Assembly: GCA_964626465.1 (NCBI GenBank)
Contig: CAZVFP010000001.1
Coordinates: 24,932 to 88,931 of the forward strand
Length of the DNA stretch: 64,000 bases
Direction: 5' to 3'
Source of the DNA: an uncultured Bacteriovoracaceae bacterium
GTDB lineage: Bacteria; Bdellovibrionota; UBA2394
How positions within the stretch are numbered: position 1 is the first letter of the stretch; the number at the start of each line of letters is the position of its first letter. The translations under genes were made by a program, and so were the position numbers. This document shows positions 6,109 through 54,408 of the stretch, one piece after another. A model generated the notes under the pieces. The model worked only from the letters and a program-made list of their open reading frames with translations, made no database searches and had not been told where the DNA came from.

Positions 6109-6311
6109 GCGCGAACAGCAAAAAAATGAAAAGCTCTAATCTTTGATTTTTTGCTTTTGAAATACGTCTCTCAACGGCTGAGTTAAATAATTCTCTCCAG
6201 TCTTCTGTCTCTGTTACTTTTTCAGCGTCAGTGAGTGCTCGTGTCTCTGCTGGCTGATCTGGATTTTTGGTTCCAGTTTGCAAGACTTTTAAAATCTGCT
6301 TCGATAAATGC

Positions 6312-7142
6312 ATGAACTTTAAATTGCGAATGCTGTTGCCTTTGTTTCTGGTGGTGATCTCTTTTATTCAAGTGGGCTGCGCTGTCTCTCCTCTTGGACG
6401 GAGGCAAATCAAACTGATGCCTGCGGGTCAAATGGATGCAATGGGTATTCAGGCATTTAATGAGATGAAGTTGAAGGCACCACAAGATAAAAATCCTCAG
6501 ATGAATTCATATATCCGATGTGTGGCAAATGCGCTCTTAGATGTATTGCCGGAAGAGACTGGCGCCATTTCTGCGGAGGGTTGGGAAATCGTGGTCTTCG
6601 ATGATAAGACGGCCAATGCTTTTGCTCTGCCTGGAAAAAAAATAGGAGTGCATTCTGGAATTTTGCCTGTTGCGCATACTCCGGACGCGCTGGCCGCTGT
6701 GATTGGGCATGAGATCGGCCATGTCATCGCCGGGCATGGTAATGAACGTGTTTCGGAGGCATTTATTGCACAGGGCGGGCTCGCGGTTGTGGGCTCGATT
6801 CTGAAAGATAAGGAAAGCCCTCGTTATAATTTGCTGATGGGTGCTCTTGGTCTTGGCGCTCAGTTCGGTGTCTTGCTTCCGCATAGCAGAACCCAAGAGT
6901 CAGAAGCCGATATCATCGGTTTAAGATTGATGGCGAGAGCTGGGTTTAATCCTGATGATAGTGTGACTTTGTGGCAGAATATGGAGAAGACGTCTGGCAC
7001 CTCGGGTCCGGAATTTTTGTCGACCCATCCGGCGCACGGAACTCGGATTGAAAATCTGAGAAAAAATATTCCGCTTGTTTCTTCATTTTATCTTGAGCGC
7101 AAAGCAAAAAATACGTTGCCTCACTGTAGTTATCGAAATTGA
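6312..7142 (+). CDS. M48-family zinc metallopeptidase, probable lipoprotein.
   Basis: HEIGH zinc motif in IGHEIGHVIAGH. Downstream ESEAD Glu. N-terminal signal ending VGC (lipobox-like). Start chosen at MNFKLRMLLPLFLVV. Confidence 0.85.
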   Translation: MNFKLRMLLPLFLVVISFIQVGCAVSPLGRRQIKLMPAGQMDAMGIQAFNEMKLKAPQDKNPQMNSYIRCVANALLDVLPEETGAISAEGWEIVVFDDKTANAFALPGKKIGVHSGILPVAHTPDALAAVIGHEIGHVIAGHGNERVSEAFIAQGGLAVVGSILKDKESPRYNLLMGALGLGAQFGVLLPHSRTQESEADIIGLRLMARAGFNPDDSVTLWQNMEKTSGTSGPEFLSTHPAHGTRIENLRKNIPLVSSFYLERKAKNTLPHCSYRN

Positions 7143-14800: not shown

Positions 14801-14848
14801 ACGACGGACGAAATCTTGAAATACGGTAATTTGGTGGATAAGCCATGA
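11819..14848 (+). CDS. Large secreted protein (1009 aa) with N-terminal Gly/Asp-rich nonapeptide repeat block and an unknown ~700-aa C-terminal region.
   Basis: Signal peptide VYASTLVLGLCQSAIG. Period-9 repeats GGKGGDGGH / GGNGEDGGR / GYDGGDGGN / GTPGGDGGR. A second Gly/Ser-rich tract follows. Confidence 0.8.
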   Translation: MLSSLVFSPLNRVKSVVYASTLVLGLCQSAIGGTLTYDVSGPNGENGRNGRNYSGSSAGHGRDGGNAGPASNGSDAGSVDLSMQDHFNEGQAGPASVVIRSRILPSNGVLQESSVTERLSPASPRIRIIARGGKGGDGGHGGNGEDGGRGRDGTDATRSSRGTDGGRGYDGGDGGNGTPGGDGGRGGRVVVRLAATDLHLGFLLETIDVNGGRGGAEGENGSAGSGGAGGSGGSSTSWQEKTGERSISVSNGDGSFSHRREDVFSTRSNPGGSSGASGSDGRSGRGETHAGMPGPDGSFEFLVTENNGRVSKYHSVSDLRLISYELIETDEVSRDGIIEPSENLTIRNIVIQNTGEMPSPAGKAAVLIGLPQADWLKLPARISIPSLKHNQTFTIVEDYKIQIAPLTAFQQNRRWARSERIDPQASVTRVYYDYKNFSRQQTITITLPIEISEIKVPETLAPGERSAISFRVKNISSKPLGSSTDGKRAVEVLLAQKSQTELPFQFEGLNGEVQLTNGFVEKILSLNPNDETVVEGYLRVPESIEPYSSVDFSASLKFPQLGSLDEARIVQENTTRLRIGQKYRYTPGADILMIVNHNTERNEILAWTNLFKKLGLKFDIWDTNYYGYLNLKRALDDDGSTLMKLYAHKTVILLNNKSDREKSKMGSDALDAEEFVEAASKRLMNFYVIGGQGGVDFLKWLMTTDPDSQGLIENPSDLGQLKSTPASFVRHIDVKKPNEKRWLKRSTTLSSSLYEAYPDQRFVFEGLTNRVNHAYDQVVIRTTIAPARGRASYLSQPDEEVHTEAFVNSEANIRALLLNLPMKKKLNLLGKLNAVHLESVPHVSEYLYQAVLHDIVEEIDLWRRAPKAFHKTNRVAMNMQYFLSYVDSRFRFAQNDVSDQMKLLIASLAAIDCYLDAIPDSVLEDYLRADFDLWMDTQWPKIFEGNHGTAKKLFDAKKMALRKSIKARGKVLVGLDDVEVLRHLLVFPAKRELKTTDEILKYGNLVDKP
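12200..12560 (+). repeat. Coding low-complexity repeat: period-27-nt (nonapeptide) Gly/Asp-rich repeats followed by a Gly/Ser tract, inside the 1009-aa gene.
   Basis: Repeated ggtggagatggtggcc... units. They generate spurious antisense ORFs. Confidence 0.6.
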
Positions 14849-23705: not shown

Positions 23706-25649
23706 ATGGTAAAGCCCGCCCCGATTCCATTCGATTCAAAGACTCTTTATCGCGAGGCCTGTCGCTTTTTTCTGCCGACGTCGCGTGAAGAAATGCAGTG
23801 GAAGGGTTGGTCCGAACTTGATGTGCTTCTTGTTTCAGGCGATGCATATGTCGACCATCCGACTTTTGGCATTCCCTGTCTCGGCCGGTTTTTGGAAAGC
23901 CTTGGACTGAGAGTCGGAATTATTCCTCAGCCGCGCTGGGAGTCCATCGACGATTTTTTAGTCATGGGGCGCCCTCGATTGTTTGTGGGGGTCTCTTCTG
24001 GAACTGTTGACAGCATGATCAATAACTATACGGCGAATAAAAAATTTCGTTCTGACGACATGTATTCTGAGGACGGAAAAGGCGGAAACAGGCCGGACTA
24101 TGCGAGTCTCGTGTATTCAAAATTGGCGCGACAAGCTTTTCCAGAGACGCCAGTCATCGTCGGCGGTGTGGAGGCCAGCTTGCGACGCTTGGCACATTAC
24201 GACTATTGGCAAAACAGAATTCGACCCTCGATTCTATTAGAGCTCGAGGCAGACCTGATGGTTTTTGGCATGGGTGAAAGACAGTGCCGCGCATTGGTGA
24301 AAGAACTGCAAAAAGTTGAAACTCAAACTGGCTGTGCAGTGAATATTGGCGACCCACTTGCGCAAGCAGCCATTGCGAAGATGAAGCGTGAGCGAGGTTT
24401 TGCTTATTTGACGACCAAAGAAATTGCGCGTGAGCTTGAACCAAGACTCACTCTTCCCTCTTTTGAAGAAGTTCGTGATGACAAGAAAAAATTTGCAAAG
24501 GCTTCACTGTTTATCGAAAAAGAAGCGAGCCCTTATAATGGGCGTCGTTTGGTTCAGTATCATGGCAATAAGGCGGCAGTGATCAATCCCCCAGCATTGC
24601 CATTGACCACGGCTGAACTAGATGCCGTTTATGAGTTGCCTTATACAAAACAGAAACATCCCCGATATACGAAGCGCATTCCCGCCGCCGAGATGATTCA
24701 ATTTTCAATCAATTCGACTCGTGGATGCTTTGGCGGATGTTCGTTTTGTGCCATCACATTGCACCAAGGACGTATTGTTCAATCTCGATCGGAAGAAAGT
24801 CTCTTGAAAGAATTAGAGGGATTAAATCAGGTGAATGGATTTAAGGGTATCGTCAGCGATATCGGAGGCCCCACAGCCAATATGTATAAGCTCCGATGCA
24901 AGAGCGAAGATATTCAGAGTAAGTGCCGAAAACTGTCGTGCGTACATCCTGGGGTTTGCCCACATTTGCATACGGATCATACTCCGCAGGTAGGATTGCT
25001 GAAAAAAGCGCGGAAGATTCCTGGAATCAGAAAAATTTCGATCGCCTCGGGGCTTCGGTACGATATCGCGCTTGCCGATAAGAAAGCTGGCCACGAATAC
25101 TTGAAAGAGTTGATTCAAAATCACGTCGGCGGACACTTGAAGGTTGCGCCAGAGCATTTAGATTCTGAAGTCCTGCATTTGATGAAAAAGCCAGGCCTGA
25201 AAGACTTTGATGAATTCGTGAGCTATTTCGAAAGAGTTTCACAGGAAGCTGGAAAAGAGCAATATATCGTCCCTTATTTCATCAGTGGTTTTCCTGGAAC
25301 TACTCACGAGAAAATGGAAGGGATCTACGAATACTTGAGATCCAAAGGATGGAACTTGCAGCAAGTTCAGGCTTTTATTCCTACTCCTATGACTTTGGCC
25401 ACGGCTATGTACTGGACCGGTTTGGATCCTCAAACGAGAAAGCCCTTGTTTGTTGCGAAAACATTTGAAGATCGAAAGCTGCAGCAGGCCCTTCTGCAGC
25501 CGCACAAAGAGCAAAACCACGAATCGGTGCGACGCTATTTTCAAAAGAAACAAAGAACGCCTGCAAAGACGAGTCAGAATCCGCGAGCTGTTATTGGTCG
25601 AGTTCCCCGCAAAAACATGGGGCCTCATTTGCTTCTTGATCAGCGCTGA
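23706..25649 (+). CDS. ygiQ: YgiQ-family (UPF0313) radical SAM protein.
   Basis: CFGGCSFC (CxxxCxxC radical-SAM cluster). YgiQ-like N-terminal LLVSGDAYVDHPTFG. Length 647 aa. Confidence 0.9.
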   Translation: MVKPAPIPFDSKTLYREACRFFLPTSREEMQWKGWSELDVLLVSGDAYVDHPTFGIPCLGRFLESLGLRVGIIPQPRWESIDDFLVMGRPRLFVGVSSGTVDSMINNYTANKKFRSDDMYSEDGKGGNRPDYASLVYSKLARQAFPETPVIVGGVEASLRRLAHYDYWQNRIRPSILLELEADLMVFGMGERQCRALVKELQKVETQTGCAVNIGDPLAQAAIAKMKRERGFAYLTTKEIARELEPRLTLPSFEEVRDDKKKFAKASLFIEKEASPYNGRRLVQYHGNKAAVINPPALPLTTAELDAVYELPYTKQKHPRYTKRIPAAEMIQFSINSTRGCFGGCSFCAITLHQGRIVQSRSEESLLKELEGLNQVNGFKGIVSDIGGPTANMYKLRCKSEDIQSKCRKLSCVHPGVCPHLHTDHTPQVGLLKKARKIPGIRKISIASGLRYDIALADKKAGHEYLKELIQNHVGGHLKVAPEHLDSEVLHLMKKPGLKDFDEFVSYFERVSQEAGKEQYIVPYFISGFPGTTHEKMEGIYEYLRSKGWNLQQVQAFIPTPMTLATAMYWTGLDPQTRKPLFVAKTFEDRKLQQALLQPHKEQNHESVRRYFQKKQRTPAKTSQNPRAVIGRVPRKNMGPHLLLDQR

Positions 25650-25951
25650 GGCGCCGTCATATTCATTTTTAGCGGGATATTTTGCTGTCGCTCTAAGATA
25701 TCGAGAGTTTCATGCGCTCTAAAATTTTTTTCTCTATCGTCTATATCTAGTTCTTCCGGATTTGACTTATCCGGCGTTAGGCTGCCCACGATGAAGGTGC
25801 CGATAATTGTGCTGAGAATCAGGCTGGTCAATGCCATCACTTCAGGATCATGAATTTTTGTTTCCGCGTGAATATTATTTCTTGATGTCGACATGAGAAG
25901 CAACAGCGAGATAAGTAGTGACCGACCGACAAAACAAATATTTTTTCTCAC
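25640..25951 (-). CDS. Small hypothetical protein with signal/TM segments.
   Basis: 103-aa ORF. Convergent 10-bp overlap with ygiQ. Weak support. Confidence 0.3.
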   Translation of the reverse strand: MRKNICFVGRSLLISLLLLMSTSRNNIHAETKIHDPEVMALTSLILSTIIGTFIVGSLTPDKSNPEELDIDDREKNFRAHETLDILERQQNIPLKMNMTAPQR

Positions 25952-26050: not shown

Positions 26051-27604
26051 TTGATATTGCCTCAAAAAATACTTCAGCTGTTCATTTCATTTTCATTCAG
26101 CGTGATGTTGCTGCTGTTGCAGAATCTCGGCGCCCAAAGCTTGATGTGGACGTCTCATCGATATTTTCTTGATCAGCGCGAAAATTTATTTGTGTCAAAT
26201 AGTTCGCCGTCCCAGTTATTGGGAAATTATCCGTCACTGTTCGAACGTCGTTCTATGGTTTTCAGGAATTTAACTGCGGATACATTTTTTCGACCCACAC
26301 GGGAGCGTTTTTCGATTCAGTGGAATGCGCAAGTGGCGGGTCTTTATCAGCAGCCCTATCGTGAGCCTCTCATGGGCTCAGACCGCTGGCCTGTGCATTA
26401 TTCGGACGTTGTACACGATTCTGAGGGCCTTCTTTCGCATCAACCCATCGAAGGAGCTCATTCTTGGACGGGTCTAGAAGCGCAGTGGATGCCGAGTAGT
26501 TGGCTTGGTTTGAGTGGCAAGATTTCGTCTGGAAAAAATTGGCGAAAGGACGATTTATGGTGGCAAGTTGACGAGCTTTATACCGATATTCGCATAAACA
26601 AATTGATTCTCTCTGTAGGACGAAAGCCTCTGTTTTGGGGACAAAATGGAACTGGATCATTTCTACAGTCATTGAACGCGAAAAATCTCGACCTTATTGA
26701 ACTGACGAATTTGCCGCTCATCCTTCCCTCTTTTTTTCGCCATTTGGGGCCAGTGAAAGCTGACTTTTTCTTCTCTCGTCTCGATGCTGAAAGACTTCCA
26801 TCGAATGATTTTTTCTCGGGCTGGCGACTTGGTTTTAAGCCAACGAAAAAATTCGAGATGAATATTTCTGGAGTGTATCAATGGGGAGGAGACTCGATTG
26901 CTTCAGAATCTTGGTATCATGCACTTGTAGAATATTTTGGGGGGCGGGTTCAGACAGGTTCCACCAACCTGGATACATCGAATTTCTTTAATCGTGCGGG
27001 CTTGCTCGATTGGCGGTTGACGTTTAGCGACTGGAAATATCCAACCTCATTCTACAGCGAGAATCATTTGGAAGATTGCTGTGGAAATCCATTTTTTCTT
27101 CTCAAGAAGGCTGTCTCATACTCTTATGGAGCCCATGTACTGTCGAGTCATGAACCAGATGCATGGCGATTCAGACTCGAGTATTTAAAGACGGGAAACG
27201 CCATTTATTATCATCAGACTTGGCCCTCTGCTGCATCAAACGCAGGGCGTTTGATGGGTCACGATATGGGGCGAGATGCTCAAGAAATTTATGTCGAGGT
27301 TGCAAAAAACTTAAGTCCTTTGAGAATCGACTGTCGTCTCTATGGATTCTGGAGGGAACGACTTAGAACTGGCCGATTATCAACGGTCTCGGAGGTTCCG
27401 GACGTCGACGCACATGGTTTGATTCCCTATTTCACGGAAAGTGAAAAAACTTCAGCCATCGGTTTCAATATGAAATGGGCATGGTCGAAGTTTCTTGTTT
27501 TTGATGCCGGGGGTCTGATTGATTATGTTTTTAACAAAGAAGGCCGAGGGGGTGTAAATAGGCTCGAAGGTGGCTTCCAAATGGGGTTTTCGGCCTTGTT
27601 TTAG
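26051..27604 (+). CDS. Putative outer-membrane beta-barrel protein (possibly Wzi-like capsule/glycan-associated).
   Basis: Signal peptide. Amphipathic beta-rich composition. C-terminal ...GFSALF ends in an aromatic residue, which is typical of OMP barrels. Confidence 0.55.
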   Translation: MILPQKILQLFISFSFSVMLLLLQNLGAQSLMWTSHRYFLDQRENLFVSNSSPSQLLGNYPSLFERRSMVFRNLTADTFFRPTRERFSIQWNAQVAGLYQQPYREPLMGSDRWPVHYSDVVHDSEGLLSHQPIEGAHSWTGLEAQWMPSSWLGLSGKISSGKNWRKDDLWWQVDELYTDIRINKLILSVGRKPLFWGQNGTGSFLQSLNAKNLDLIELTNLPLILPSFFRHLGPVKADFFFSRLDAERLPSNDFFSGWRLGFKPTKKFEMNISGVYQWGGDSIASESWYHALVEYFGGRVQTGSTNLDTSNFFNRAGLLDWRLTFSDWKYPTSFYSENHLEDCCGNPFFLLKKAVSYSYGAHVLSSHEPDAWRFRLEYLKTGNAIYYHQTWPSAASNAGRLMGHDMGRDAQEIYVEVAKNLSPLRIDCRLYGFWRERLRTGRLSTVSEVPDVDAHGLIPYFTESEKTSAIGFNMKWAWSKFLVFDAGGLIDYVFNKEGRGGVNRLEGGFQMGFSALF

Positions 27605-27651
27605 GCCTCGTCCTCGATAGACACGGGCCTTAAATTGTAATTATCTACGTC

Positions 27652-29433
27652 ATGCTCGCGGTCGTTCCACGACGGATTAAAATTCGTGTCAGCGTTTTGT
27701 CAGTTGTCGCCGCAGCCATCATCTTTGCGCCGTGGTCGTTTTCTCAGTCGATCGTTTTCAATCTTGTGTGGACTTTATTGAGTGTCTTGTTTGGGCTCTA
27801 TATGCTCTGGTGTTATTGGCCAAAACTCAATTGGGGAATCGGTCGTGAAATATCAGGATCCCTCGCGATTGTGGCTGGCCAGAAATTCTCATTAACTTTT
27901 GATGATGGCCCTACACCGGGGCTCACTGAAAAAATTTTGGATATTCTTACTGCCACAAATATAAGGGCTTCGTTCTTTGTCTTGCTTCCAAAAGCGAGAG
28001 AGAATCCTGACCTTATTCGACGCATCGTCAACGAGGGTCATGAGCTCGGCCTGCACGGTGAAGATCATCGTTCTCCATTCTTTAGAACGCCTCAAGATCT
28101 CTTTTTGTCTCTGTCGCGCGCGAAGGCTGAGCTAGAAAATATAGCCGGTCGATCCGTAGATCTGTATCGACCGAGTCATGGTTGGAAAAATATAGCTCTG
28201 CTGATCGCTGTGAGACGTGCTTCTCTAAAAATCGTGCAATGGGATTTGGGCGTTTGGGATACAGCCAATCCGGATCTCAATACTTTATTTGATCGATTGA
28301 AACTCTCTTCTTCCGCTTCACATGAAAACAATAGAAAGACAATTTTACTCCATGATGGTAAAAATGATGACCCTCAGATGCCCGCTCATGGTGTCGTTCT
28401 CTTAAGTGCTCTCGAGAAGTGGTTGCGTTTTGAGAATTCTCATCGCAGTGATCAATCTAATTCGACTACTCGCGTTGCATTTGGGGGATGGCTTGGTTTC
28501 TTCGTCGTGGTGGCCCTTTCAATCTTGGCGGTTCGTCACATTAACTTTCAAGCTTTTTTAATTTCGCTTAAATCACAATCGTTATTAGCTCTTTTTTGTG
28601 TTTGTGCTGGAAATCTAGTCGCGACTTTCTTCCAAGGGTTGCGTTTTTTTTGGCTTTTACCAAATTCAAATATTTCAGCGTTGCGACAGGTGGGGCTCCA
28701 ATTCGTTGTGAATTCAGGAAATATCTTGCTTCCCTTTCGGGCGAGCGAAGTCATTCGACCTCTATTCTTAAAAAAATGGGAAGATAGAATTTCAATTAAG
28801 GAGCTGATCCTCTGGACCGTGGTCGATAAATTCCTAGAGGCTCTGAGCTTTTTACCATTTCTGCTTGTAGCTTCAGAAATGTTTTCAATTTCTAGGATAT
28901 GGCTTTTCGTCGCCATTGCTCTCGGTGGAGCGGGAATTTTCTTCTGGCGCAGGAGGTGGCCGCATATTCAGCCTCGTTCTTTAATTCTTGCAACGCTGGC
29001 GTCTTGCGCTATGTGGACAGCCTATGTTTTTTCGTTTGGAGTTCTGTTTTCTTCTTGGAAGTTGGGTTTTGGGGCAACCATTGCGACCACTCTTGGATCT
29101 GTGATTCCTGCGGGCCCTGCGAGTATTGGAACGTTTGAAGCGGCGCTTACCTGGTTTCTTGAAAGCTTTAAGCAGATGCCTGCCTCTGAAGCTTTGGCAG
29201 TGGCCGTTGCGGCGCATGGAAGTCTGATCTTTTCAAGTTTAATGGTTGGGGTGCCGCTGATCATGACTTGGGGCTGGCCGAAGCGACATGGTGAGATGAT
29301 TTCAAAAGTTCGAGTGCCACTTCGTTATAAGTTCACCAATACTTTGGTCTATATCTGCGCGTTTATTATGATTGTTTTTTCGTTTGCCATTTGGATTCCA
29401 GAATCGCGAATGCCCAAGGTGAATAGGAATTAA
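27652..29433 (+). CDS. Polysaccharide deacetylase (NodB homology domain) fused to a C-terminal lysyl-PG-synthase-like (MprF/UPF0104-type) transmembrane domain.
   Basis: NodB motifs TFDDGP and HELGLHGEDH, LYRPSHGW. N-terminal TM helices and about 8 C-terminal TM helices. Confidence 0.75.
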   Translation: MLAVVPRRIKIRVSVLSVVAAAIIFAPWSFSQSIVFNLVWTLLSVLFGLYMLWCYWPKLNWGIGREISGSLAIVAGQKFSLTFDDGPTPGLTEKILDILTATNIRASFFVLLPKARENPDLIRRIVNEGHELGLHGEDHRSPFFRTPQDLFLSLSRAKAELENIAGRSVDLYRPSHGWKNIALLIAVRRASLKIVQWDLGVWDTANPDLNTLFDRLKLSSSASHENNRKTILLHDGKNDDPQMPAHGVVLLSALEKWLRFENSHRSDQSNSTTRVAFGGWLGFFVVVALSILAVRHINFQAFLISLKSQSLLALFCVCAGNLVATFFQGLRFFWLLPNSNISALRQVGLQFVVNSGNILLPFRASEVIRPLFLKKWEDRISIKELILWTVVDKFLEALSFLPFLLVASEMFSISRIWLFVAIALGGAGIFFWRRRWPHIQPRSLILATLASCAMWTAYVFSFGVLFSSWKLGFGATIATTLGSVIPAGPASIGTFEAALTWFLESFKQMPASEALAVAVAAHGSLIFSSLMVGVPLIMTWGWPKRHGEMISKVRVPLRYKFTNTLVYICAFIMIVFSFAIWIPESRMPKVNRN

Positions 29434-29451
29434 GATGAATAGGAACCTGCG

Positions 29452-30639
29452 ATGAAAATCGGAATTGTCACAGAATTTTTTTATCCGACTCTTGGGGGTA
29501 TCCAGGAACATGTCTATTTCTTTGCGCGCGAACTTTTAAAAAGAGGTCACCAGCCTAAAATTATTACACCTCAGATCCCGGTTTCTGGAGATATTGAGAA
29601 ATGGTGGCCAGAGGATTTGCCACGAGAAATTTATTGTCCGATTGGAATCAGTCTTCCATTTTTTATTAATGGCTCAGTGGGAAGGACTTGCGTCGGGTTT
29701 CGCATGGGATCAAAGCTGAAGAATCTTCTGACCCCAGAGAATTTCGACATTGTGCATATTCATTCACCGATGTTGGGGGTTTTAGCGCTTTTATCTAATC
29801 ATTTTGCGACGGCACCTGTTGTAGGAACATTTCATACATCCTTCGGTGATTCGCTTAATTTAAGATTTTATAAATTTCTTTTGCGGCGGCATTTGCGACG
29901 CTTGAATAGCACGATCTGTGTCTCTCCGATATCTCGTGCATCGATTCAGAATATTTTCTCTGACTTTGACGCCCATATTATTCCAAATGGAATTGATACA
30001 AATATCTTTCGTCCTCTCGATCTTCGTGATGATGATCGTTTCCAAAAGTTCGTTGATGGAAAACTGAATATTTTATTCATGGGCCGTGCTGATCCACGCA
30101 ATGGACTCGGAACTTTGATTAAGGCTTTCCATGAAGCAAAAAAAGTCATTCCGGAAATGAGACTCTTGGTTGCAGGCGGAGGCGATCTGATGTCGACCTA
30201 TCAATCAATGGTCGCGGACCTTAGCACATCCGATGTCGAATTTTTGGGCCCTGTGCGAGATGAAAGACCTCAGCTTTATCGCACAGCTGATATTCAGTTT
30301 TTTGGAGTCGAAAGAGCGGCGTTTGCTTTGACTCTACTTGAAGGGATGGCCACAGCTTTGCCGATCATCACGACGGATTTTGAAGGGCATGAGTTTACGG
30401 GACGAGCTGGAGAACACTTTGTGACTTCGCCTTTTGGCAATGTTCCTCTATTGGTGGAACGTCTAGTGGAGCTTGCGCAAGATCCAAAGAAAAGAAGAGA
30501 AATCGGCGTGGCGGCTCGCGAACGTGTGAAGCTGTTTACTTGGACAAAGATTACAGATGAGATTCTTAAAGTTTATGATGGGGTACTTTCTTCCTCTGGT
30601 GCCTTGCGTGCAAATGATAAAGCTGTATGTAATCAGTAG
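29452..30639 (+). CDS. GT4-family (GT-B) glycosyltransferase.
   Basis: N-terminal FYPTLGGIQEHVYFFARELLKRGH (MshA/BshA/PimA-like). C-terminal LTLLEGMATALPIITTD (the E-x7-E region). Confidence 0.85.
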   Translation: MKIGIVTEFFYPTLGGIQEHVYFFARELLKRGHQPKIITPQIPVSGDIEKWWPEDLPREIYCPIGISLPFFINGSVGRTCVGFRMGSKLKNLLTPENFDIVHIHSPMLGVLALLSNHFATAPVVGTFHTSFGDSLNLRFYKFLLRRHLRRLNSTICVSPISRASIQNIFSDFDAHIIPNGIDTNIFRPLDLRDDDRFQKFVDGKLNILFMGRADPRNGLGTLIKAFHEAKKVIPEMRLLVAGGGDLMSTYQSMVADLSTSDVEFLGPVRDERPQLYRTADIQFFGVERAAFALTLLEGMATALPIITTDFEGHEFTGRAGEHFVTSPFGNVPLLVERLVELAQDPKKRREIGVAARERVKLFTWTKITDEILKVYDGVLSSSGALRANDKAVCNQ

Positions 30640-30684: not shown

Positions 30685-31494
30685 ATGGGTTTTTTGGGTC
30701 GATTCAGGGTTGTGCTCTGCGCTATTCTCATTTTCACTTCAGTTCGTGAGGTTGATGCTGGATGTAAATCTCGGCTGAAAAGTATCGTTCTTCCTGCCTA
30801 TTCTGTCGTTCTTGGGGCCGTGATTCTCACAACGAATTGGTGGCTTCCACGTCTGTTGAAATTTCATGATGAGCGAGTTCGCCAGGCAGGCATTCAGCGA
30901 GAGGTTAATTTGTGGGCATCGGCTAAAACTCCGGCGGAGGTTTTTCGGATTATTTCAAATCGATATATACGCTTTCAGTCCGTGCCATCACTTGATGCAA
31001 TTCCTGCAGATATTTTAAAACTTGGATCCGCGGATTCTTGGGCTTTGGTTTTTAGGCAGGAAGTCAGCAGATACTTGGTCGAAGTCAACCAACCTGACGG
31101 GAGCTCAGAAATTCAAATTCATTTAGACAGAGAAATTTCGGAGCCGTATGAAATTATTCGGTCTTTGGATGTGCTTTCTCATTTGGCCAATATGATCATC
31201 GAAACAAAACCCTGGGGGTCGGTTTCTGAAAGTGGGATCGAAGGATTCCGACAACCGCTTTACGTTGTTCAGCAGTTTTGTACGGAATTTCCTGAGTTTG
31301 TGAGAAAGTCGCCACCTCCTGAGAATGCTGCGAGTCAACAGCTTGAGCGACAGGTTCGTGAAATGCTTTACATGGTTTCTCTTTTGATGAAGCCACCTGC
31401 CCCGATGCTGGGCATTGAAGATCGTTCGAGGGCCCGATCTTTCGGGCGGCTTTGGTCGTGGCTTGATTCGCTTCCCAAGTCAGCTGAGAAGTGA
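30685..31494 (+). CDS. Hypothetical protein with N-terminal hydrophobic anchor.
   Basis: 269-aa ORF. N-terminal TM/signal. Confidence 0.5.
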   Translation: MGFLGRFRVVLCAILIFTSVREVDAGCKSRLKSIVLPAYSVVLGAVILTTNWWLPRLLKFHDERVRQAGIQREVNLWASAKTPAEVFRIISNRYIRFQSVPSLDAIPADILKLGSADSWALVFRQEVSRYLVEVNQPDGSSEIQIHLDREISEPYEIIRSLDVLSHLANMIIETKPWGSVSESGIEGFRQPLYVVQQFCTEFPEFVRKSPPPENAASQQLERQVREMLYMVSLLMKPPAPMLGIEDRSRARSFGRLWSWLDSLPKSAEK

Positions 31495-32787
31495 TTTACG
31501 TTTGAGCAGCTTCTTCGCCGTGAAATAGCTTGAGATCAATAGAAATATACCAAATAGACTCAGGGCCAAATTCTCCTTGATCTGAATGGCGAGCACGACC
31601 CCCGCCAATAAAATAAATGATATTGGTTTATAGTTCAGCTTATACTTCAGCCACGGATTTTTAGTTGATATTTTTTGTTCAATCAGAATGAAGCCTATGG
31701 CCACAAGAATATAGAAGCACCAACTAATGGCAATGAAACAGGTAATCAGTGATTCGAAATTTCCAAGAAGTGCAAAAACAGAAGAGATGAAACACTGTAA
31801 GATAAGAGCAACTGATGGCGAAGTAAATTTTGGATGAAGAGTTCCTAATCTTTTCGGCAGCCATCCTTCTTTTGCCATCTGCTCTGTGACTCTAGGCCCA
31901 ATCATGATGGCCGGAACGGCAGTCATAAATACAGCGACGATCATCATCAATAATGTTAGATTCTCTCCGCCGGCTCCAAATGCTTTGGACGAAAGCGCCA
32001 CCGCAATATTGGGCATCATGACAAGATCTTGAGGTTGAATATAGCTGATCGCGAGGTAGTTGAGAAGAAAGTAGAGAATCATCACAACACCACAGCCAGT
32101 CAAAATATATTTTGTGAGATTCTTGCTGCTCTCATGGATCTCATGGGCAACAAAGGATAGAGAATTAAATCCTTCGTAACTCCAGAGGATGCCCACGATC
32201 GCCATGGCGAAATTAGAAAAATTCTTATCCGAAACATGATTCGCTATTGCGGGATCAATTTTTTCAATTGTAAATGCGAGAACACTGAAGAGCGCGAGAA
32301 TAAGGCAGATTTGAGTAGATACAACGATCTTTTCAAATGTGCCCGTCGCTCGCATTCCCAGATAGTTGATTGTTGTAATCAGAGAAATAAACGCGACTGC
32401 GATACATGAAACTGCAGCTGCAGAAAGTTGAGGAAAAAACGCTTTTGCTTGTTCAGCAAAAAACATTGAGTAACCGGCAATCATCGACGGAGAAATCACA
32501 AGTAGGCACATCCATCCGTAAACAAGCGCAATATCTTTTCCCAAAGTTTTCTCGAGATAAATATATTGACCTCCACCAGACGGAAATCTCTGTCCTAATT
32601 TTCCGTAGATTTCTCCACCGACAGCACACATGAATCCACCGATGGCCCAGAGCGCAAAGGTCAGCCAAAGGTCTGTTGAGAACCTCGCAACCATAGCCGG
32701 CGTGACGAAAATGCCTGTTCCTACGATGCTGCCAATGACGATTCCGATTGAAGCAATTGCTCCGATTTTTTGAAGATGAATAGTCAT
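31480..32787 (-). CDS. APC-family amino acid permease.
   Basis: 12-TM pattern. N-terminal GSIVGTGIFVTP motif typical of amino acid/polyamine transporters. Confidence 0.85.
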   Translation of the reverse strand: MTIHLQKIGAIASIGIVIGSIVGTGIFVTPAMVARFSTDLWLTFALWAIGGFMCAVGGEIYGKLGQRFPSGGGQYIYLEKTLGKDIALVYGWMCLLVISPSMIAGYSMFFAEQAKAFFPQLSAAAVSCIAVAFISLITTINYLGMRATGTFEKIVVSTQICLILALFSVLAFTIEKIDPAIANHVSDKNFSNFAMAIVGILWSYEGFNSLSFVAHEIHESSKNLTKYILTGCGVVMILYFLLNYLAISYIQPQDLVMMPNIAVALSSKAFGAGGENLTLLMMIVAVFMTAVPAIMIGPRVTEQMAKEGWLPKRLGTLHPKFTSPSVALILQCFISSVFALLGNFESLITCFIAISWCFYILVAIGFILIEQKISTKNPWLKYKLNYKPISFILLAGVVLAIQIKENLALSLFGIFLLISSYFTAKKLLKRKSLLS

Positions 32788-34036: not shown

Positions 34037-35449
34037 GTGTTGGCATCAGTCTTGCAGATTTATTCTGTAATGCTCAATACTTGGCAGTCTCAAGTGAAGG
34101 CTTTTGCTGGCGTTATTGTCAGTTTGATATTTTTTCTCTCATCGAGTCTCTGCTTTGAGGGAGTTCTGTATGCGAAGAGAGAAGATGTTTCAGCGTCAGA
34201 GCCTGGCCTCAATCATCAGTGCTCGTCCGTTCTTAAAGAATTAGCGCAGCGTCTCGCGGAGAGTTTTAGGCGGCAAGATCGAGTTGATTATCCTCATTTC
34301 AGTTGGGAAAAGATAGATGCCGAAACTAGATCTCGTTCTCGTGTCTTCAATTTCAGCGCGCATAACTACCGCACCGTTTGGCGGCAATATCTTGCGGATG
34401 ATTCGCCTTTACAAGAGTTCATGGATCAAACGATCGAATATCTTCAGTCAAGTCACATTGATCGTTGTGTCATTCGACTTCAAACGGGAGCGGAACGCCG
34501 TTTGGCTCGAGGTGAAAAAATAGTTTATCCCAGATCTTATCAGGCCTGCAAAGAGGCGAATGTACTCAATCCCGGCACTTTCAATTTGGATTCCCCGAAT
34601 CTTCGTAACGAGTGGGCAGCAAATAGCGCCTTTCGTAGGTACGGGCTCAAAGCGAAGGATTATTTTAAATGGAGCTCCCGTATCAAGAGCGCTGCCATTC
34701 GTGTGGCCCTGGAGGGCAATCTTAGAATTGTTAAAATCAAAAACATCCGAGAAAAAAAACAGAGGGCCTTAGAGCAGCGATGGAAAGAAAATCTCGAGTT
34801 TGGATTGAAATACTTAAACGATCGAGAAGCGATCAGCGATGGTGAACCTCTGCCCCAAGGCCCAATCTCAGATGATGTGGCACGTGAAACTTTAGATTTT
34901 TTTCGCTCCTTTGATGTCGGCGATTGGGCGTATTTTGAGGAAATTCCTCTTGTAAGTTCGTCTCATGCAACAAAGGACCGAATATCTAAACAATGGAAGG
35001 CCAGAAGTTGGAATATAGAAAACTACTCTGATCGTTGGAGAAGGTTTTTTGATTCTTCTCCTGCCGATCAAGAATTTATGGATGATGTCATAGGCTACCT
35101 TGAGTTAGATTCCGACGAGCGGTTGATTTTTCGATTGAATCGCGGCTTATTAGCACAGCTATCCAGATCTGACGTGATTCGTATTCCTCGCAGAAACACG
35201 CTCATTCCAGACGCAGAAAAAGTGAGAAATCCGCGAGAAACAAGCTTGGAAGGGTCGCCGGCTCAGCGACTGCAAAGCCTAGGAATTTCGATTACATACA
35301 GAAATGCTCTGGAAGATGAACTTGTGCCAACAATCCTTAAAGACGCGATTCACTGGAGTGAAGATCTTACCGAGTCTGAGCGGGAAAAAATTCGTGAAAT
35401 TTACAGAAATAGTCAGTCAGAGGGGCTAGCCAGAGGTATCCGTCAATGA
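34037..35449 (+). CDS. Hypothetical secreted protein.
   Basis: 470-aa ORF. Hydrophobic N-terminal region. ATGA-coupled to the downstream gene. Confidence 0.55.
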   Translation: MLASVLQIYSVMLNTWQSQVKAFAGVIVSLIFFLSSSLCFEGVLYAKREDVSASEPGLNHQCSSVLKELAQRLAESFRRQDRVDYPHFSWEKIDAETRSRSRVFNFSAHNYRTVWRQYLADDSPLQEFMDQTIEYLQSSHIDRCVIRLQTGAERRLARGEKIVYPRSYQACKEANVLNPGTFNLDSPNLRNEWAANSAFRRYGLKAKDYFKWSSRIKSAAIRVALEGNLRIVKIKNIREKKQRALEQRWKENLEFGLKYLNDREAISDGEPLPQGPISDDVARETLDFFRSFDVGDWAYFEEIPLVSSSHATKDRISKQWKARSWNIENYSDRWRRFFDSSPADQEFMDDVIGYLELDSDERLIFRLNRGLLAQLSRSDVIRIPRRNTLIPDAEKVRNPRETSLEGSPAQRLQSLGISITYRNALEDELVPTILKDAIHWSEDLTESEREKIREIYRNSQSEGLARGIRQ

Positions 35450-35991
35450 TAAATGGCGATCAAATGATGGCGAGGATTCTGCTCTCAATCACTCTCTTAA
35501 CCGCTGTGCCGGCATTTGCCGAAGGTCCTAGTGGCCCTCGATCTTGTGCGGAAGTGCTTCGTAAGCTGCAATATGAGTTGCAAACGATTTCTGGACGGTT
35601 GAAGACAGAGCTTCCTTTCGTAGATACGAATTTTCTTGGGCATCCTGTGAATTTGGATTTCACGGTGTTCTGGGATCATTCTCAGAGCCACGCTTCTGTT
35701 TTGATATCTGCTGTGAGCGCTGATCGCGATGGGCGGAGCCGACGGAGCAACCCGCGGACGATTGCATTATATCCTCTTGCGGATCAATCTGGTTTTGAAA
35801 GTAAAAATTCTTTTCAGTTTGACTTCGGGTCCCCCGCATTACATCCACGCTTCGACGATCATCGCCATTTATATTTTGAGTTTAGGTTCAGTGATGATGG
35901 GTCGAGAGGCTTGCTCTATGTCTTCAAAGGGTCAGCTACGGATCCGAGGGTGCGAGGCGAACTTATTCATCTTCATCAATTTCAGCTTTGA
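35446..35991 (+). CDS. Secreted hypothetical protein.
   Basis: Signal peptide ARILLSITLLTAVPAFAEG. ATGA overlap with the upstream gene. Confidence 0.55.
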   Translation: MINGDQMMARILLSITLLTAVPAFAEGPSGPRSCAEVLRKLQYELQTISGRLKTELPFVDTNFLGHPVNLDFTVFWDHSQSHASVLISAVSADRDGRSRRSNPRTIALYPLADQSGFESKNSFQFDFGSPALHPRFDDHRHLYFEFRFSDDGSRGLLYVFKGSATDPRVRGELIHLHQFQL

Positions 35992-36134
35992 TCCATTTCC
36001 ATTTTTCTCATCAGAATTCCTTACTTAGCCTGATCTCTTAATCGGCGGGGTTCTCCTCGCCAACGCCAAATGCTGCGGCGTGTTTATGCAAGATGTCAGA
36101 TCGGCGCGACAATAGTCTTTGGGGGGAGACTATC

Positions 36135-37742
36135 ATGGCAAAGTGGCTTGCTGTCACGGTTCTAGCGACGTGCGATATTTCATGGGCATCATCATTTCAG
36201 AACCTGCAATGTATGAATGAATTAACGAGAACTTTTTCAAATGCGCAGATGAATTTTTGTGACAACGGATATTTTTTTTCGAGCGATTCATCTGGCTTCA
36301 ATGCTTATGATAAAGCGACCTGTCATTTGATCAATGATCTGACGTTGCATATCTATCAAGAAAATAATCGGATGATTGTGGAAGTGGCGGGTCTTCACTC
36401 TGGTTTTTTTTCGACGGCTGATGCCTCGAGAAACGGTATGGAGACATACTCCCGGTGTAAGGATGTTACTGCGGCTGTAAAGAAATGGGCAACGCTCCGT
36501 AAGATTGCTGTACTTCCGGCAAATTCAAAATCGCCGGAAAACATTGATAGTGTTGCAGTTGTCGCATCAAAAAGAAATTGTAGTGGCCTTAAAAATGTTA
36601 TCGATGATTGGATTGAAGCGTTAACAAGCGAAGGAAAGAGTGGTTCGGCCCTCATCTGTGTTCCTGATGAAATCGTTGGCACGAATAATCCAGCACTCGT
36701 CAGACAGTATATTTTCGAAAATATTAGTCGCCAGAAAGGACTCATTCTTGTTGGCAGCGACCTGCCACCATTTGAGATCTATTCGAAGACAGGTTTTTCG
36801 CCCGGCTATGCACAGTTTGATTATGGGTCAAGCGATCTGCCTTATGGGGAAATCAGCTCTGTGTTCTGGAATCAGCCGATTTCAAAGCTAAGTGATTCAC
36901 TACGAAATATCGTATATCATGATGAAAATAATATTCATCTGACCCGTCAACCCACTTCATGGGCCTATGATTTAGACTTGTGGCGAGCCTCTGTTATGCG
37001 CGGATCAGAGACTTTCGAGGCGCAGAATAATCTTTGGGTCAGTCGATGGGTTGCAGATGAATCATATTTGAAGCATTCCCTGAGAAATTTTGTTGAGCGT
37101 CGAAGTCAGTTCCGGCCTTTTCTAAATCACCGATATCTACATGCGCGTGGCAGTTCTGGTGTGATGTTTACTCCGCATGATCCAGATTTGGAGCTGAGAA
37201 CTCAAAATATGCTAAGACCGTTTTTTGACAACCTGCCGCCACAGAGTCGGTCATATATTATGACAGGAACGCAGCTGTTTGGTTTGACTCGTCATATCGA
37301 TACCGAAACAACCATGATGACCTATGATGAACATGGAACCTCAGTTGGAATTGGGGATCTGAAGGCCTTTCGTCTTGTTCAGATGGATTTTTATCCGCCT
37401 ATACTTAACTTAGATAGTTGTCAGGTCGGCGAATGGTATGAAGAAGAATCATCGCAGACTTTTATAGCGCAGTTGTTTTCAGCCGATCGACCTCCGCTTG
37501 TTGTTCTTGCAAGCCAAGGCACCAAATGGATGCCAACTATTGGTAGTGTTGATTCAATAACGGGGGATGTATTTTTTGATGGGCTGGCAAGTGGGCAAAC
37601 ATTTGGAAACCGACAATTGGAGACGTTTCAGAATAATATGCGGCATTGGTTTCAAAATTATCCAAACGATCCGACGACGAGTTTTCCTATGCAGCTCTAT
37701 CATTCACTTTCTCTATTTGGCGATGGAAGTATTGAATTTTAA
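36135..37742 (+). CDS. Secreted hypothetical protein (~535 aa).
   Basis: Start at MAKWLAVTVLATC, preceded by a GGGGGGA Shine-Dalgarno-like run. Signal peptide. Confidence 0.6.
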   Translation: MAKWLAVTVLATCDISWASSFQNLQCMNELTRTFSNAQMNFCDNGYFFSSDSSGFNAYDKATCHLINDLTLHIYQENNRMIVEVAGLHSGFFSTADASRNGMETYSRCKDVTAAVKKWATLRKIAVLPANSKSPENIDSVAVVASKRNCSGLKNVIDDWIEALTSEGKSGSALICVPDEIVGTNNPALVRQYIFENISRQKGLILVGSDLPPFEIYSKTGFSPGYAQFDYGSSDLPYGEISSVFWNQPISKLSDSLRNIVYHDENNIHLTRQPTSWAYDLDLWRASVMRGSETFEAQNNLWVSRWVADESYLKHSLRNFVERRSQFRPFLNHRYLHARGSSGVMFTPHDPDLELRTQNMLRPFFDNLPPQSRSYIMTGTQLFGLTRHIDTETTMMTYDEHGTSVGIGDLKAFRLVQMDFYPPILNLDSCQVGEWYEEESSQTFIAQLFSADRPPLVVLASQGTKWMPTIGSVDSITGDVFFDGLASGQTFGNRQLETFQNNMRHWFQNYPNDPTTSFPMQLYHSLSLFGDGSIEF

Positions 37743-50882: not shown

Positions 50883-51058
50883 GAAGCATCTCCTCACTTT
50901 TGTCGTTACTACCAGCGAGCTGAAAGTTCATCCAGCACCACATCAAGTCAATTCTGCAAATCTTATACCAGGCCTAGGTCATTGAAATGATTTGAGAATA
51001 TAGCCTGCTACCCGAGACCGGGAAGTCCCATCTGTGGTATCTTGTTCGCAGTTGAGCG

Positions 51059-51973: not shown

Positions 51974-52023
51974 TTGGCCCTCTGTCTACATCAAATGATT
52001 GTAAAATCAACAAGCGCCGAGGC

Positions 52024-54402: not shown

Positions 54403-54408
54403 ATTATT

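Follow-up and report, generated by a model that had tools for sequence, protein, structure and literature searches.

Two sets of genes are the closest described systems to the locus analyzed here. In P. aeruginosa, the gpgSDF genes encode a GT4 glycosyltransferase, a deacetylase, and a putative flippase of the UPF0104 type, which make GlcNAc-PG and convert it to GlcN-PG; the deacetylase GpgD is a soluble COG3233 protein, and the authors of that study argue that it is cytosolic (PMC12713373). In C. difficile, the hexSDF genes produce aminohexosyl-hexosyl-diradylglycerol by the same three functions, with HexF as the putative flippase, and the deacetylase mutant accumulates the N-acetylated lipid. 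In the published model, HexD is extracellular and acts after flipping (PMC10128005).

Amino-sugar lipids of this kind have only recently been recognized as a means by which bacteria make their surface less anionic and resist cationic antimicrobials. To our knowledge, genetic characterization of their formation is limited to P. aeruginosa (2025) and C. difficile (2023). We analyzed a locus that lies in a stretch of 64,000 nucleotides (hereafter, the window) of an uncultured Bacteriovoracaceae bacterium. The ORF listing contained three co-directional ORFs at 26051-27604, 27652-29433, and 29452-30639, with gaps of 47 and 18 nt, exactly where the initial annotation of this DNA had placed them, and Pfam gave Wzi, CE4, LPG_synthase_TM, and GT4 domains in the expected ORFs. 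The features are as follows.

26051..27604, + strand: Wzi-family outer-membrane beta-barrel gene, 517 aa, 47 nt upstream of D-F (PF14052)
27652..29433, + strand: D-F fusion gene, 593 aa; two-helix membrane hairpin, CE4/NodB domain, predicted MprF-type (PplT/UPF0104) flippase, and extra C-terminal TM helix (PF01522 and PF03706)
27670..27816, + strand: N-terminal TM hairpin of D-F, aa 7-55, ending in a conserved YxxWCxWP(R/K) motif (AF2 helices 7-30 and 34-55)
27883..28440, + strand: CE4/NodB de-N-acetylase domain (D), aa 78-263 (Pfam, invariant columns, Foldseek, and motif alignment)
28468..29271, + strand: predicted MprF-type lipid flippase (PplT/UPF0104) domain (F), aa 273-540 (PF03706 and fold search)
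29329..29385, + strand: additional TM helix at the C-terminus, aa 560-578, with a WIPExxMPK tail after it (AF2 helix at low pLDDT)
29452..30639, + strand: S, cytoplasmic GT4 (GT-B) of a PimA-like clade, 395 aa (Glyco_transf_4 and Glycos_transf_1)
30685..31494, + strand: downstream ORF, 269 aa, with two N-terminal hydrophobic segments (ORF listing and hydropathy)

That is, two adjacent ORFs 18 nt apart encode the combination that defines an S-D-F module, namely a glycosyltransferase, a de-N-acetylase, and a UPF0104/MprF-like flippase. As in the case of gpgSDF, the GT4, the deacetylase, and the flippase are encoded together in a Gram-negative host; the likeness to hexSDF lies in the combination of a glycosyltransferase, a "polysaccharide deacetylase", and an MprF-like flippase. 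We therefore think it rather probable that the locus is an amino-glycolipid module of the gpgSDF/hexSDF kind, in which the lipid would be deacetylated and then flipped. Promoter and terminator scans yielded no more hits than expected from shuffled sequence, i.e., they were at chance level, so the limits of the operon are drawn from spacing alone. Rfam and tRNA scans of the whole window gave no matches.

The deacetylase part of the fusion matched Polysacc_deac_1 (PF01522) at aa 78-192 with E=1e-22 and 80.9 bits against a cutoff of 23.1 bits. All five catalytic/metal motifs are intact (D84 and D85; H135 and H139; R173 and P174; W202 and D203; H234). In an alignment of 11 family members, TFDDGP, HGEDH, YRPSHG, WD, and LLHDG were invariant, and the motifs align one by one with those of the solved CE4 enzymes 7y51, 7fbw, and Bc1960. 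All top 50 Foldseek matches of the D domain were CE4 enzymes (TM-score to target of at most 0.85), and the nearest structural neighbors were peptidoglycan, chitin, and xylan deacetylases. D is predicted from these motifs to be a catalytically competent CE4 deacetylase; the initial annotation had already noted intact motifs in its NodB domain. By the family descriptions, it would differ from GpgD, a soluble COG3233 protein, in being a TM-anchored CE4 (PF01522).

The anchor of D is the N-terminal hairpin. In the family alignment, W53 and W56 of the motif at its end are invariant, and Y50, C54, and P57 are nearly invariant. Over the family, K and R together number 0-5 in the K/R-rich N-tail, 0-1 in the hairpin loop, which is almost free of them, and 1-4 after TM2, and the K/R-rich loops of F agree with an N-in orientation, which is also the topology of MprF. 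On the basis of this charge bias (the positive-inside rule) and the analogy with MprF, the hairpin is predicted to tether D to the cytoplasmic face of the membrane. If D lies in the cytoplasm, deacetylation would precede flipping. S and D would then both be cytoplasmic, as in gpgSDF, and a less anionic membrane is expected in both systems, whereas HexD is modeled outside the cell. The initial annotation had suggested that a GlcNAc-lipid or a GlcNAc-glycan is de-N-acetylated and translocated. The core of that idea is retained, with the order of the steps now sharpened, but the glycan becomes less likely than the lipid because D is predicted to be cytoplasmic and membrane-tethered.

The same topology bears on the idea that the GT4 and the CE4 make and partly deacetylate a PNAG/Pel-like exopolysaccharide or a capsule, which would be displayed via the Wzi protein. 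Most CE4 enzymes do act on polysaccharides, including the top structural neighbors of D described above, and a member of the Wzi family adjoins D-F. However, a cytoplasmic, membrane-tethered D does not suit this route, the window contains no processive synthase, polymerase, or export machinery, and both the fusion with a phospholipid-type flippase and the association with MMPL transporters described below point to a lipid. We regard this route as very improbable, and a PNAG-like polysaccharide was rejected on the grounds of topology and missing partner genes.

The flippase part matched LPG_synthase_TM (PF03706) at aa 280-531 with E=3e-15 and 57.1 bits against a cutoff of 33.4 bits, over profile positions 2-300 of 302, and it carries an invariant LPxRxGExxRP motif (P361, R363, E366, R369). 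The AF2 model of F alone had a pLDDT of 85 and a pTM of 0.80. The sole significant PDB fold matches of this model were five MprF structures with TM values of 0.52-0.58, and the next match was at 0.19. A sequence profile of F domains gave no match among PDB sequences at E<=1, so that the fold search was needed to recognize the kinship with MprF. The D-F protein contains no aminoacyl-PG synthase domain and ends about 50 aa past the flippase domain. From the sequence and the model, F is predicted to be an MprF-type flippase, not MprF proper. The proposed fusion of a NodB domain with an MprF-like TM domain was thus confirmed by the Pfam match and by fold matches to MprF only.

F thus shares the flippase fold and the Pfam family with MprF and PplT/YbhN. 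MprF domains flip phospholipids. The fusion also resembles MprF in its design, since a lipid-modifying enzyme would be joined to the flippase of its own product and a charge-neutralizing headgroup would be exported. MprF proper carries a C-terminal aminoacyl-PG synthase domain, whereas in D-F the flippase is joined to a CE4 deacetylase on its N-terminal side. A CE4-flippase fusion of this type is not mentioned in the main text of the PplT survey.

The AF2 model of the whole D-F protein had a pLDDT of 76. The identical 593-aa protein is present in three independent assemblies, so the fusion did not arise from misassembly. Two related loci, L024 and L026, have separate D and F genes that are colinear with it at 45% and 35% identity. 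Further full-length D-F fusions form about 15 clusters at 50% identity, and fused and split forms interleave in a crude NJ tree that carries no support values. The extra C-terminal TM helix and the WIPExxMPK tail occur in the unfused F of Bdellovibrionales-type loci and are missing from the Myxococcota fusions; that is, F of the window shares them with split F proteins only. The interleaved tree and this shared tail indicate that the D-F fusion arose more than once, independently. That D has repeatedly become joined covalently to the flippase, at its cytoplasmic N-terminus, is evidence from nature for joint action of D and F, and it indicates that the substrate of the flippase is the deacetylated lipid. 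If this is true, the fusion would settle the order of steps that was left open for gpgSDF and hexSDF, namely deacetylation inside, followed by flipping.

The GT4 immediately downstream of D-F, as initially annotated, has full-length Glyco_transf_4 and Glycos_transf_1 domains. Its best PDB relative was PimA (E=4e-38, 134 bits, residues 1-381, about 33% identity), and all others gave at most 51 bits, with MshA and BshA at only 42-48 bits. The enzyme had been described as similar to MshA, BshA, and PimA, and of these PimA is by far the closest. The GpgS model NF053787 matched S with 27.6 bits and E=1.2e-6, far from its cutoff of 480 bits. HexS, in turn, is annotated as an MGDG-synthase type, not as a PimA-like GT4. 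Judged by these comparisons, S is neither a GpgS equivalog nor a true PimA ortholog.

Because a GT4 and a deacetylase also act in succession in the synthesis of mycothiol (MshA/MshB) and bacillithiol (BshA/BshB), we considered a soluble thiol or metabolite route. The BshA and MshA models did match S weakly at full length (66 and 52 bits), but these scores are far under the cutoffs of 274 and 462 bits, and PimA is much closer. In addition, MshB and BshB are LmbE-family enzymes, not CE4; D is anchored in the membrane and fused to a lipid flippase; and no cysteine ligase is encoded nearby. The chance that such a route explains the locus appears to be negligible, and a thiol-biosynthesis role of S was rejected from the similarity scores, the topology, and the missing partner genes.

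PimA (PDB 2gej/4n9w) is a peripheral enzyme that glycosylates a phospholipid headgroup, and its donor is GDP-mannose. Among the PimA donor residues, R196 and E282 are kept in S, K202 is replaced by Asn ("PRNG"), and Ala stands opposite E274. All 50 relatives examined show the same pattern, and tier-1 GT4s, a distinct tier of S orthologs with 48-67% identity, carry a VE[RK]A motif of their own. The partners also differ, being a deacetylase and a flippase here and a PI synthase and an acyltransferase in actinobacteria. Since K202 and E274 are not kept and the partner genes are different, the donor of S is unlikely to be simply GDP-mannose. We also tried to read the donor sugar from an alignment of the GT4s; key residues of the clade differ from those of PimA, yet this does not identify the donor. 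The earlier suggestion of UDP-GlcNAc, drawn from the likeness to MshA, BshA, and PimA, is thereby weakened, because the nearest enzyme uses GDP-mannose and the donor site differs even from that of PimA. An N-acetylated sugar is proposed solely because S partners a de-N-acetylase. Taken comprehensively, S is predicted to add an (N-acetyl)hexosamine to the headgroup of a membrane lipid. As this GT4 differs both from GpgS and from the donor site of PimA, neither precedent can be transferred directly.

We then consider the gene neighborhoods of relatives, for which the statistics rest on 26 loci, about 17 of them independent. Of the approximately 17 independent loci, which come from Bdellovibrionota and Myxococcota, 9 have D, F, and S side by side, fused or split and in four arrangements. 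All five tier-1 GT4s of known context adjoin D/F; that is, this tier is paired with D/F wherever the context is known. In at least eight related loci, D occurs without F or S within reach, and D may therefore have other partners. An MMPL transporter adjoins D/F/S-type genes in seven loci, and a START-like protein recurs. No MMPL gene was found in the window, and a tblastn search there gave no counterparts of the accessory neighbors (MMPL, START-like, metallophosphoesterase, C4, and C17). The three-gene synteny expected by the initial annotation is therefore kept across two phyla for D, F, and S, but the barrel gene is linked to them only in this genus.

From these results, the following mechanism can be envisaged. 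[quoted passage not shown] The simplest choice of sugar would be GlcNAc, donated by UDP-GlcNAc, and the likeliest acceptors would be phosphatidylglycerol and phosphatidylinositol. The hairpin-held CE4 domain would strip the N-acetyl group at the same face and leave a protonatable amine, and the fused MprF-type domain would shift the zwitterionic or cationic lipid to the periplasmic leaflet. In related lineages, the divergently transcribed MMPL (RND-type) transporter probably carries the lipid onward, toward the outer membrane. The envelope surface would become less negative, and lower binding of cationic peptides and similar agents would be expected. A lipid substrate is proposed because the closest characterized glycosyltransferase, PimA, acts on a phospholipid headgroup, because F is of the MprF type and D has a membrane hairpin with an invariant interfacial W-C-x-W-P motif, and because MMPL lipid transporters and the START-like protein accompany the module. 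Thus, the conversion of a HexNAc-lipid to a cationic amino-sugar lipid and its translocation, the central suggestion of the initial annotation, is supported by the gpgSDF/hexSDF logic, the MprF-like TM domain, and the D/F/S synteny in two phyla.

A carrier-lipid pathway of the Arn/Lgm/NaxD type would share the inner steps of this scheme. In such a pathway, an N-acetyl amino sugar linked to polyprenyl phosphate is deacetylated in the cytoplasm and flipped, and a distant periplasmic GT-C transfers it to lipid A or a surface glycan. ArnD, itself of the CE4/NodB type, deacylates a lipid-linked sugar on the cytoplasmic side, prior to flipping, and the ArnD model matched D, albeit weakly (E=0.009). 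One relative has a divergent GT-C gene (MptA_B family) beside D-F, and in two loci (L010 and L011) a protein with about nine TM helices and of no known family overlaps the stop codon of D. However, the GT-C neighbor occurs in just 1 of about 17 loci, and the window contains neither a GT2 polyprenyl-phosphate glycosyltransferase nor an ArnT-like GT-C. Moreover, the known pathways of this type pair GT2 enzymes (ArnC, LgmA, FlmF2) with small flippases of the EamA/SMR type, instead of a PimA-like GT4 with an MprF-type phospholipid flippase. We consider a carrier lipid unlikely.

Within the direct lipid modification preferred here, a more specific version is that S transfers GlcNAc to phosphatidylinositol and the module makes and flips GlcN-PI, which MMPL and occasionally GT-C proteins would export or extend in Bdellovibrionota and Myxococcota. 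The chemical logic is that of the GPI-core pathway, in which the GT4 PIG-A is followed by the deacetylase PIG-L and by flipping of GlcN-PI, and the GT-C neighbor in one relative resembles a mannosyltransferase; the parallel is no more than an analogy. PIG-L belongs to the LmbE family rather than to CE4, and S gave no PIGA-domain match. In contrast to the GPI-core pathway, no inositol-lipid genes accompany the module: CDP-alcohol phosphatidyltransferase, inositol-phosphate synthase, and acyltransferase genes were found neither in the window nor among the annotated neighbors of relatives. We know of GlcN-PI, the core of GPI anchors, only in eukaryotes and some archaea, and a literature search turned up no relevant work on GlcN-PI in bacteria, on glycolipids linked to MMPL in Bdellovibrio/Myxococcus, or on follow-ups of gpgSDF. 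This version is quite unlikely in our estimation; if true, it would represent a bacterial pathway for a GPI-like surface glycolipid.

This locus and its relatives represent a third, evolutionarily separate build of the same three-part logic, consisting of a PimA-like GT4, a membrane-tethered CE4, a PplT flippase, and often MMPL. In contrast to gpgSDF, the module has D fused to F, its genes run D-F-S instead of S-D-F, and relatives carry the MMPL partner. In contrast to hexSDF, whose genes are unfused, the host is not Gram-positive and the acceptor would not be a glycolipid. The module is found through predatory and social Bdellovibrionota and Myxococcota and hints that these phyla have an envelope lipid not yet described, for which the recurring MMPL gene suggests a route to the outer membrane.

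The gene upstream of D-F had been annotated as an outer-membrane barrel with a terminal Phe. This is correct and can be sharpened to the Wzi family, since the ORF has a signal-peptide-like N-terminus, a C-terminal ...GFSALF, and a match to Caps_assemb_Wzi (PF14052) with E=2e-38 and 132.6 bits against a cutoff of 30.1 bits. In E. coli K30, Wzi is an outer-membrane lectin that anchors the capsule to the cell surface. The window protein belongs to a very small divergent clade, with three relatives among 5.8 billion protein clusters, and no group-1 capsule genes (wza-wzb-wzc), Wzx, or Wzy were found among the 46 window ORFs scanned (those of at least 150 aa). It had no PDB sequence match at E<=1.

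The gene could belong to a four-part module, in which the barrel receives or anchors, on the outside of the cell, either the amino-glycolipid itself or a glycan assembled on it, as the capsule-attachment role of E. coli Wzi might suggest. It lies on the same strand 47 nt upstream of D-F and is possibly co-transcribed, the gene order is preserved in a relative with 86% nucleotide identity (L018-L021), and it occupies the position of the MMPL gene of other lineages. However, the Wzi-like gene adjoins D-F only in the lineage of the window and this relative, and conservation at the genus level says little on function. The other D/F/S loci surveyed contain no Wzi homolog, and the only two distant relatives (34-35%) adjoin the dTDP-rhamnose genes rmlA/rmlC/rmlB, with no D/F/S within 10 kb. 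The absence of Wza, Wzc, Wzx, and Wzy from the window also argues against it. We therefore hold the four-part module to be decidedly improbable, and the earlier assignment of the barrel as the outer-membrane component of the module is not sustained; most likely, it is an independent envelope gene outside the module.

On the other side of the module, the 269-aa ORF had no Pfam or NCBIfam match even at E<=1, and no homolog was found at the same position in L024 or L026. It starts 45 nt past the GT4 gene and is possibly the last gene of the operon.

We think that the locus is on balance best explained as a module producing an amino-glycolipid, consisting of a GT4 glycosyltransferase (S), a CE4/NodB deacetylase (D) and an MprF-type (PplT/UPF0104) flippase domain (F). 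The three co-directional open reading frames (ORFs) described in the initial annotation are present at exactly the coordinates it gave, with gaps of 47 nt between ORF1 and ORF2 and 18 nt between ORF2 and ORF3. The features are as follows.

Features of the locus
26051-27604, ORF1: Wzi capsule-assembly family, outer-membrane protein (Pfam, E=2e-38)
27652-29433, ORF2, aa 78-192: CE4/NodB deacetylase domain, D (Pfam, E=1e-22)
27652-29433, ORF2, aa 280-531: lysyl-PG-synthase TM domain PF03706, F (57 bits against a 33-bit cutoff, nearly the whole profile)
29452-30639, ORF3: GT4 glycosyltransferase, S (Pfam)
30685-31494, fourth ORF: 269 aa, family unassigned by Pfam, starting 45 nt past S

In an alignment of 11 proteins with the architecture of ORF2, all five CE4 motifs (D84-D85, H135/H139, R173-P174, W202-D203 and H234) were invariant, and so was the UPF0104 signature P361-x-R363-x-x-E366-x-x-R369. 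The CE4 motifs also align position by position with those of solved deacetylases. An identical 593-aa D-F protein is encoded by three independent assemblies; thus, the fusion is not an assembly artefact. Together with the Pfam assignments, these results confirm the earlier claim that a NodB domain with intact catalytic motifs is fused to the TM domain.

The AlphaFold2 model of the whole D-F protein had a pLDDT of 76, and all of its top 50 PDB matches were CE4 enzymes (TM-score to target up to 0.85). When the TM half was modelled alone (pLDDT 85, pTM 0.80), the five significant PDB matches were all MprF cryo-EM structures from P. aeruginosa and Rhizobium (TM 0.52-0.58), and the next match fell to TM 0.19. 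The sequence profile of F matched no PDB sequence, so that its relationship to MprF is seen solely through Pfam and the fold. On these two lines the MprF/UPF0104-like character proposed for the TM domain holds.

PimA is a phosphatidylinositol mannosyltransferase, and it is by a wide margin the closest solved relative of S (E=4e-38, 134 bits, about 33% identity over residues 1-381). The scores of S against PimB', BshA and MshA were 42-51 bits, and soluble thiol synthesis seems to us a scarcely credible role for the locus. Every NCBIfam equivalog model scored S far under its cutoff; the model of GpgS, the GlcNAc-PG synthase, gave 27.6 bits against a cutoff of 480 bits. A database search placed the orthologs of S in a separate tier of about 22 proteins (tier-1, 48-67% identity), below which identity drops sharply to a large PimA-like pool at 42% or less. 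Throughout the clade of S, the beta-phosphate-binding K202 of PimA is replaced by Asn ("PRNG") and no acidic residue aligns to E274 of PimA; a VE[RK]A motif is particular to the tier-1 proteins. That is, S is, as judged from sequence, PimA-like in fold but not a PimA ortholog, and it probably acts on a membrane-lipid headgroup as PimA does. The donor is not readable from sequence, and the sugar is presumed to be N-acetylated only because the constant partner of S is a de-N-acetylase. Automatic annotation routinely labels this clade (29452-30639 and about 50 relatives, P0125-P0199) phosphatidylinositol alpha-mannosyltransferase. Because of the Asn at K202 and the lack of an aligned E274, these annotations are probably wrong on the substrate.

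A two-helix hairpin (residues 7-30 and 34-55 in the AlphaFold2 model) precedes D; the motif at its end, Y-x-x-W-C-x-W-P-(R/K), is nearly invariant. Across the family, the number of Lys/Arg residues is 0-5 in the N-terminal tail, 0-1 in the hairpin loop and 1-4 after the second helix, and by the positive-inside rule the CE4 domain is therefore predicted to be cytoplasmic. This placement agrees with the K/R-rich loops of F (aa 541-559 and about aa 432-443). The cytoplasmic N-terminus of the MprF flippase domain, to which the C-terminus of D is joined, points the same way. Hydropathy analysis gave no convincing TM segment in S. From this predicted topology, S and D would both work at the inner face of the inner membrane, and F would export the deacetylated lipid.

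We therefore propose, from the predicted topology, the following order of steps. The cytoplasmic PimA-like S would add HexNAc to the headgroup of a membrane glycerolipid, PG or PI; the tethered CE4 domain would remove the N-acetyl group; and the fused MprF-type domain would flip the lipid to the periplasmic leaflet. The more specific idea that the product is GlcN-PI, a lipid resembling the GPI core, seems to us rather improbable. An Arn/Lgm-like pathway using a carrier-lipid donor is also unlikely, though a little less so; the types of GT4 and flippase do not fit it well, and the window has no GT2 or GT-C genes.

The logic of the proposed amino-glycolipid module is already known. In P. aeruginosa, gpgSDF encodes a GT4 enzyme (GpgS), a COG3233 deacetylase (GpgD) and a UPF0104 flippase (GpgF), forms GlcNAc-PG and then GlcN-PG, and suffices for this synthesis in E. 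coli; the authors favour the view that deacetylation takes place in the cytosol (PMC12713373). In C. difficile, hexSDF produces an aminohexosyl glycolipid required for daptomycin and bacitracin resistance, and the N-acetylated lipid builds up in the hexD mutant; HexD is extracellular in the published model, which leaves intracellular action possible (PMC10128005). Both operons share the same three functions with the window module. In contrast to them, the window-type module, whose product is a prediction, has another glycosyltransferase clade, another deacetylase family, a recurrent D-F fusion and a recurrent partner of the MMPL family (RND-type lipid transporters), and occurs in other phyla. 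A preprint that surveys the architectures of the MprF flippase ("PplT") reports it fused to aminoacyl-PG synthases, GT-A and GT-B glycosyltransferases, kinases and others; a deacetylase fusion is absent from its main text.

A word-indexed search gave about 11 full-length relatives of the D-F fusion (37-40% identity), and a scan of reference genomes, a collection without the window genome, found it only in Myxococcota/Polyangia MAGs. Gene-context look-ups and an HMM scan of 26 loci gave the following arrangements.

Gene order at related loci (L) and contigs (P)
Window lineage: Wzi, D-F, S
L004, P0005 contig: D-F then S, stop and start codons overlapping
P0008, P0011 contigs: D-F and S convergent
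L024/L025 (Bdellovibrionales MAG), L026: divergent MMPL, then separate D, F, S with 4-nt overlaps
L009, L013: D, START-like gene, S, F, then MMPL
L007, L008, L014: D only, MMPL adjoining
L006, L012, L016, L017: D adjoining Ser/Thr kinase
L010, L011: D then protein with about 9 TM helices
L001/L005: D-F alone

Of about 17 independent loci, 9 have D, F and S side by side, and all five tier-1 glycosyltransferases with visible context lie beside D/F. The D, F and S of L024/L025 and L026 are colinear with the window genes (45%, 35% and 52% identity). An MMPL gene adjoins D or D-F-S at seven independent loci in two phyla, usually divergently (L024:4917-7424, L026:5662-8160, L009:14152-16629, L013:9265-11742, L007:1584-4142, L008:5169-7700). 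The MMPLs of both phyla are full-length homologs (27-30% identity over about 820 aa), and in these related lineages the transporter probably carries the lipid onward; the 64-kb window holds no counterpart.

An exhaustive profile search of 1.84 billion representatives found about 15 further 50%-identity clusters of full-length D-F fusions; many 2-TM D proteins and F proteins encoded on their own came up as well. On the D-domain tree, a crude NJ tree with no support values, fused and split forms are intermingled. Like the unfused F proteins of L024 and L026, the window F carries one additional TM helix at its C-terminus and a "WIPE..MPK" tail, and both are absent from the Myxococcota fusions. 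The tree and the shared tail thus indicate that the fusion arose more than once. Such repeated fusion is strong comparative support for the view that D and F share one substrate molecule.

Several further features were seen at these loci. In a relative at 86% nucleotide identity (L018:742-2537, corresponding to window 27652-29433), a frameshift in the NodB domain at about aa 148-173 splits D-F into ORFs of 183 and 407 aa, with intact Wzi and GT4 flanks; this could be a pseudogene or an assembly error. In several Myxococcota, genes for large Ser/Thr kinases containing TPR repeats are found close to stand-alone D or D-F, or converge on them (L006:8978-12205, L012:8790-11963, L016:8631-11807, L017:3587-4627, and the P0008 and P0011 contigs). 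They may reflect a regulatory link or the mere abundance of kinases in these genomes; kinase-PplT fusions in Actinobacteria are reported in the PplT preprint. In the Myxococcota clusters, a protein of about 400 aa is repeatedly found between D and S (L009:8790-10043, L013:4105-5358, P0008 contig 5721-6908); its match to Polyketide_cyc (START/SRPBCC lipid-binding) is weak (E=0.006). At L010:4120-5631 and L011:4175-5689, the coding sequence for a protein of about 503 aa begins 4 nt before the stop of D; the protein, to which Pfam assigns no family, is predicted to have about 9 TM helices and could be a divergent transferase or transporter replacing F.

The initial annotation had also proposed the beta-barrel as the outer-membrane component of the module. 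Comparison among loci lends this no support: the scan of 26 loci found no Wzi homolog at other D/F/S loci, and the order Wzi, D-F, S was seen only in the window, near-identical contigs and the relative at 86% nucleotide identity. The 47-nt gap means that the Wzi-like gene may be co-transcribed with D-F, and we regard a Wzi-coupled four-part module as quite unlikely. A polysaccharide route is very unlikely. Wza, Wzc and other capsule genes are all absent from the window, as are MMPL and inositol-lipid genes. Among 5.8 billion protein clusters, the Wzi-like protein has three detectable relatives, one at 88% and two at 34-35% identity. The latter two adjoin or lie near the dTDP-rhamnose genes rmlA, rmlC and rmlB/D-like (L022:10001-21632, L023:558-4585), a setting that suggests an association of this small clade with a surface glycan that contains rhamnose; neither has any of the D, F and S genes within 10 kb.

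The Wzi-like gene has an ambiguous start (26051-26146). The gene call in a near-identical contig yields a 486-aa product, which fits a start at Met32 of the 517-aa ORF and would lose the signal peptide. A TTG start at 26051 (or 26057) restores a typical signal sequence ending in GAQS, and an RBS-like GAAGGGA lies just upstream. Promoter and terminator scans were uninformative. About 400 nt separate the Wzi gene from the end of a YgiQ-family radical SAM gene upstream (23706-25649, 782 bits). The stop codon of that gene is overlapped by a 103-aa minus-strand ORF (25640-25951) with two hydrophobic segments and no known family, which, if real, separates YgiQ from the Wzi/D-F/S transcription unit. 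Downstream, two hydrophobic segments lie at the N-terminus of the 30685-31494 product, which belongs to no known family. The last 15 nt of its gene overlap with a convergent gene for an amino-acid permease (31480-32787), and nothing similar is encoded at this position in L024 or L026. Elsewhere in the window, 11819-14848 encodes a 1009-aa protein whose sole recognisable part is DUF7932; the 320-aa protein encoded next matches a zinc ribbon only weakly, below threshold. Large ORFs without a Pfam family occupy 49587-58916 (436, 304, 629, 623 and 908 aa) and 34037-37742 (470, 181 and 549 aa); orphan proteins seem to be numerous in this genome, in keeping with a lineage that is poorly sampled.
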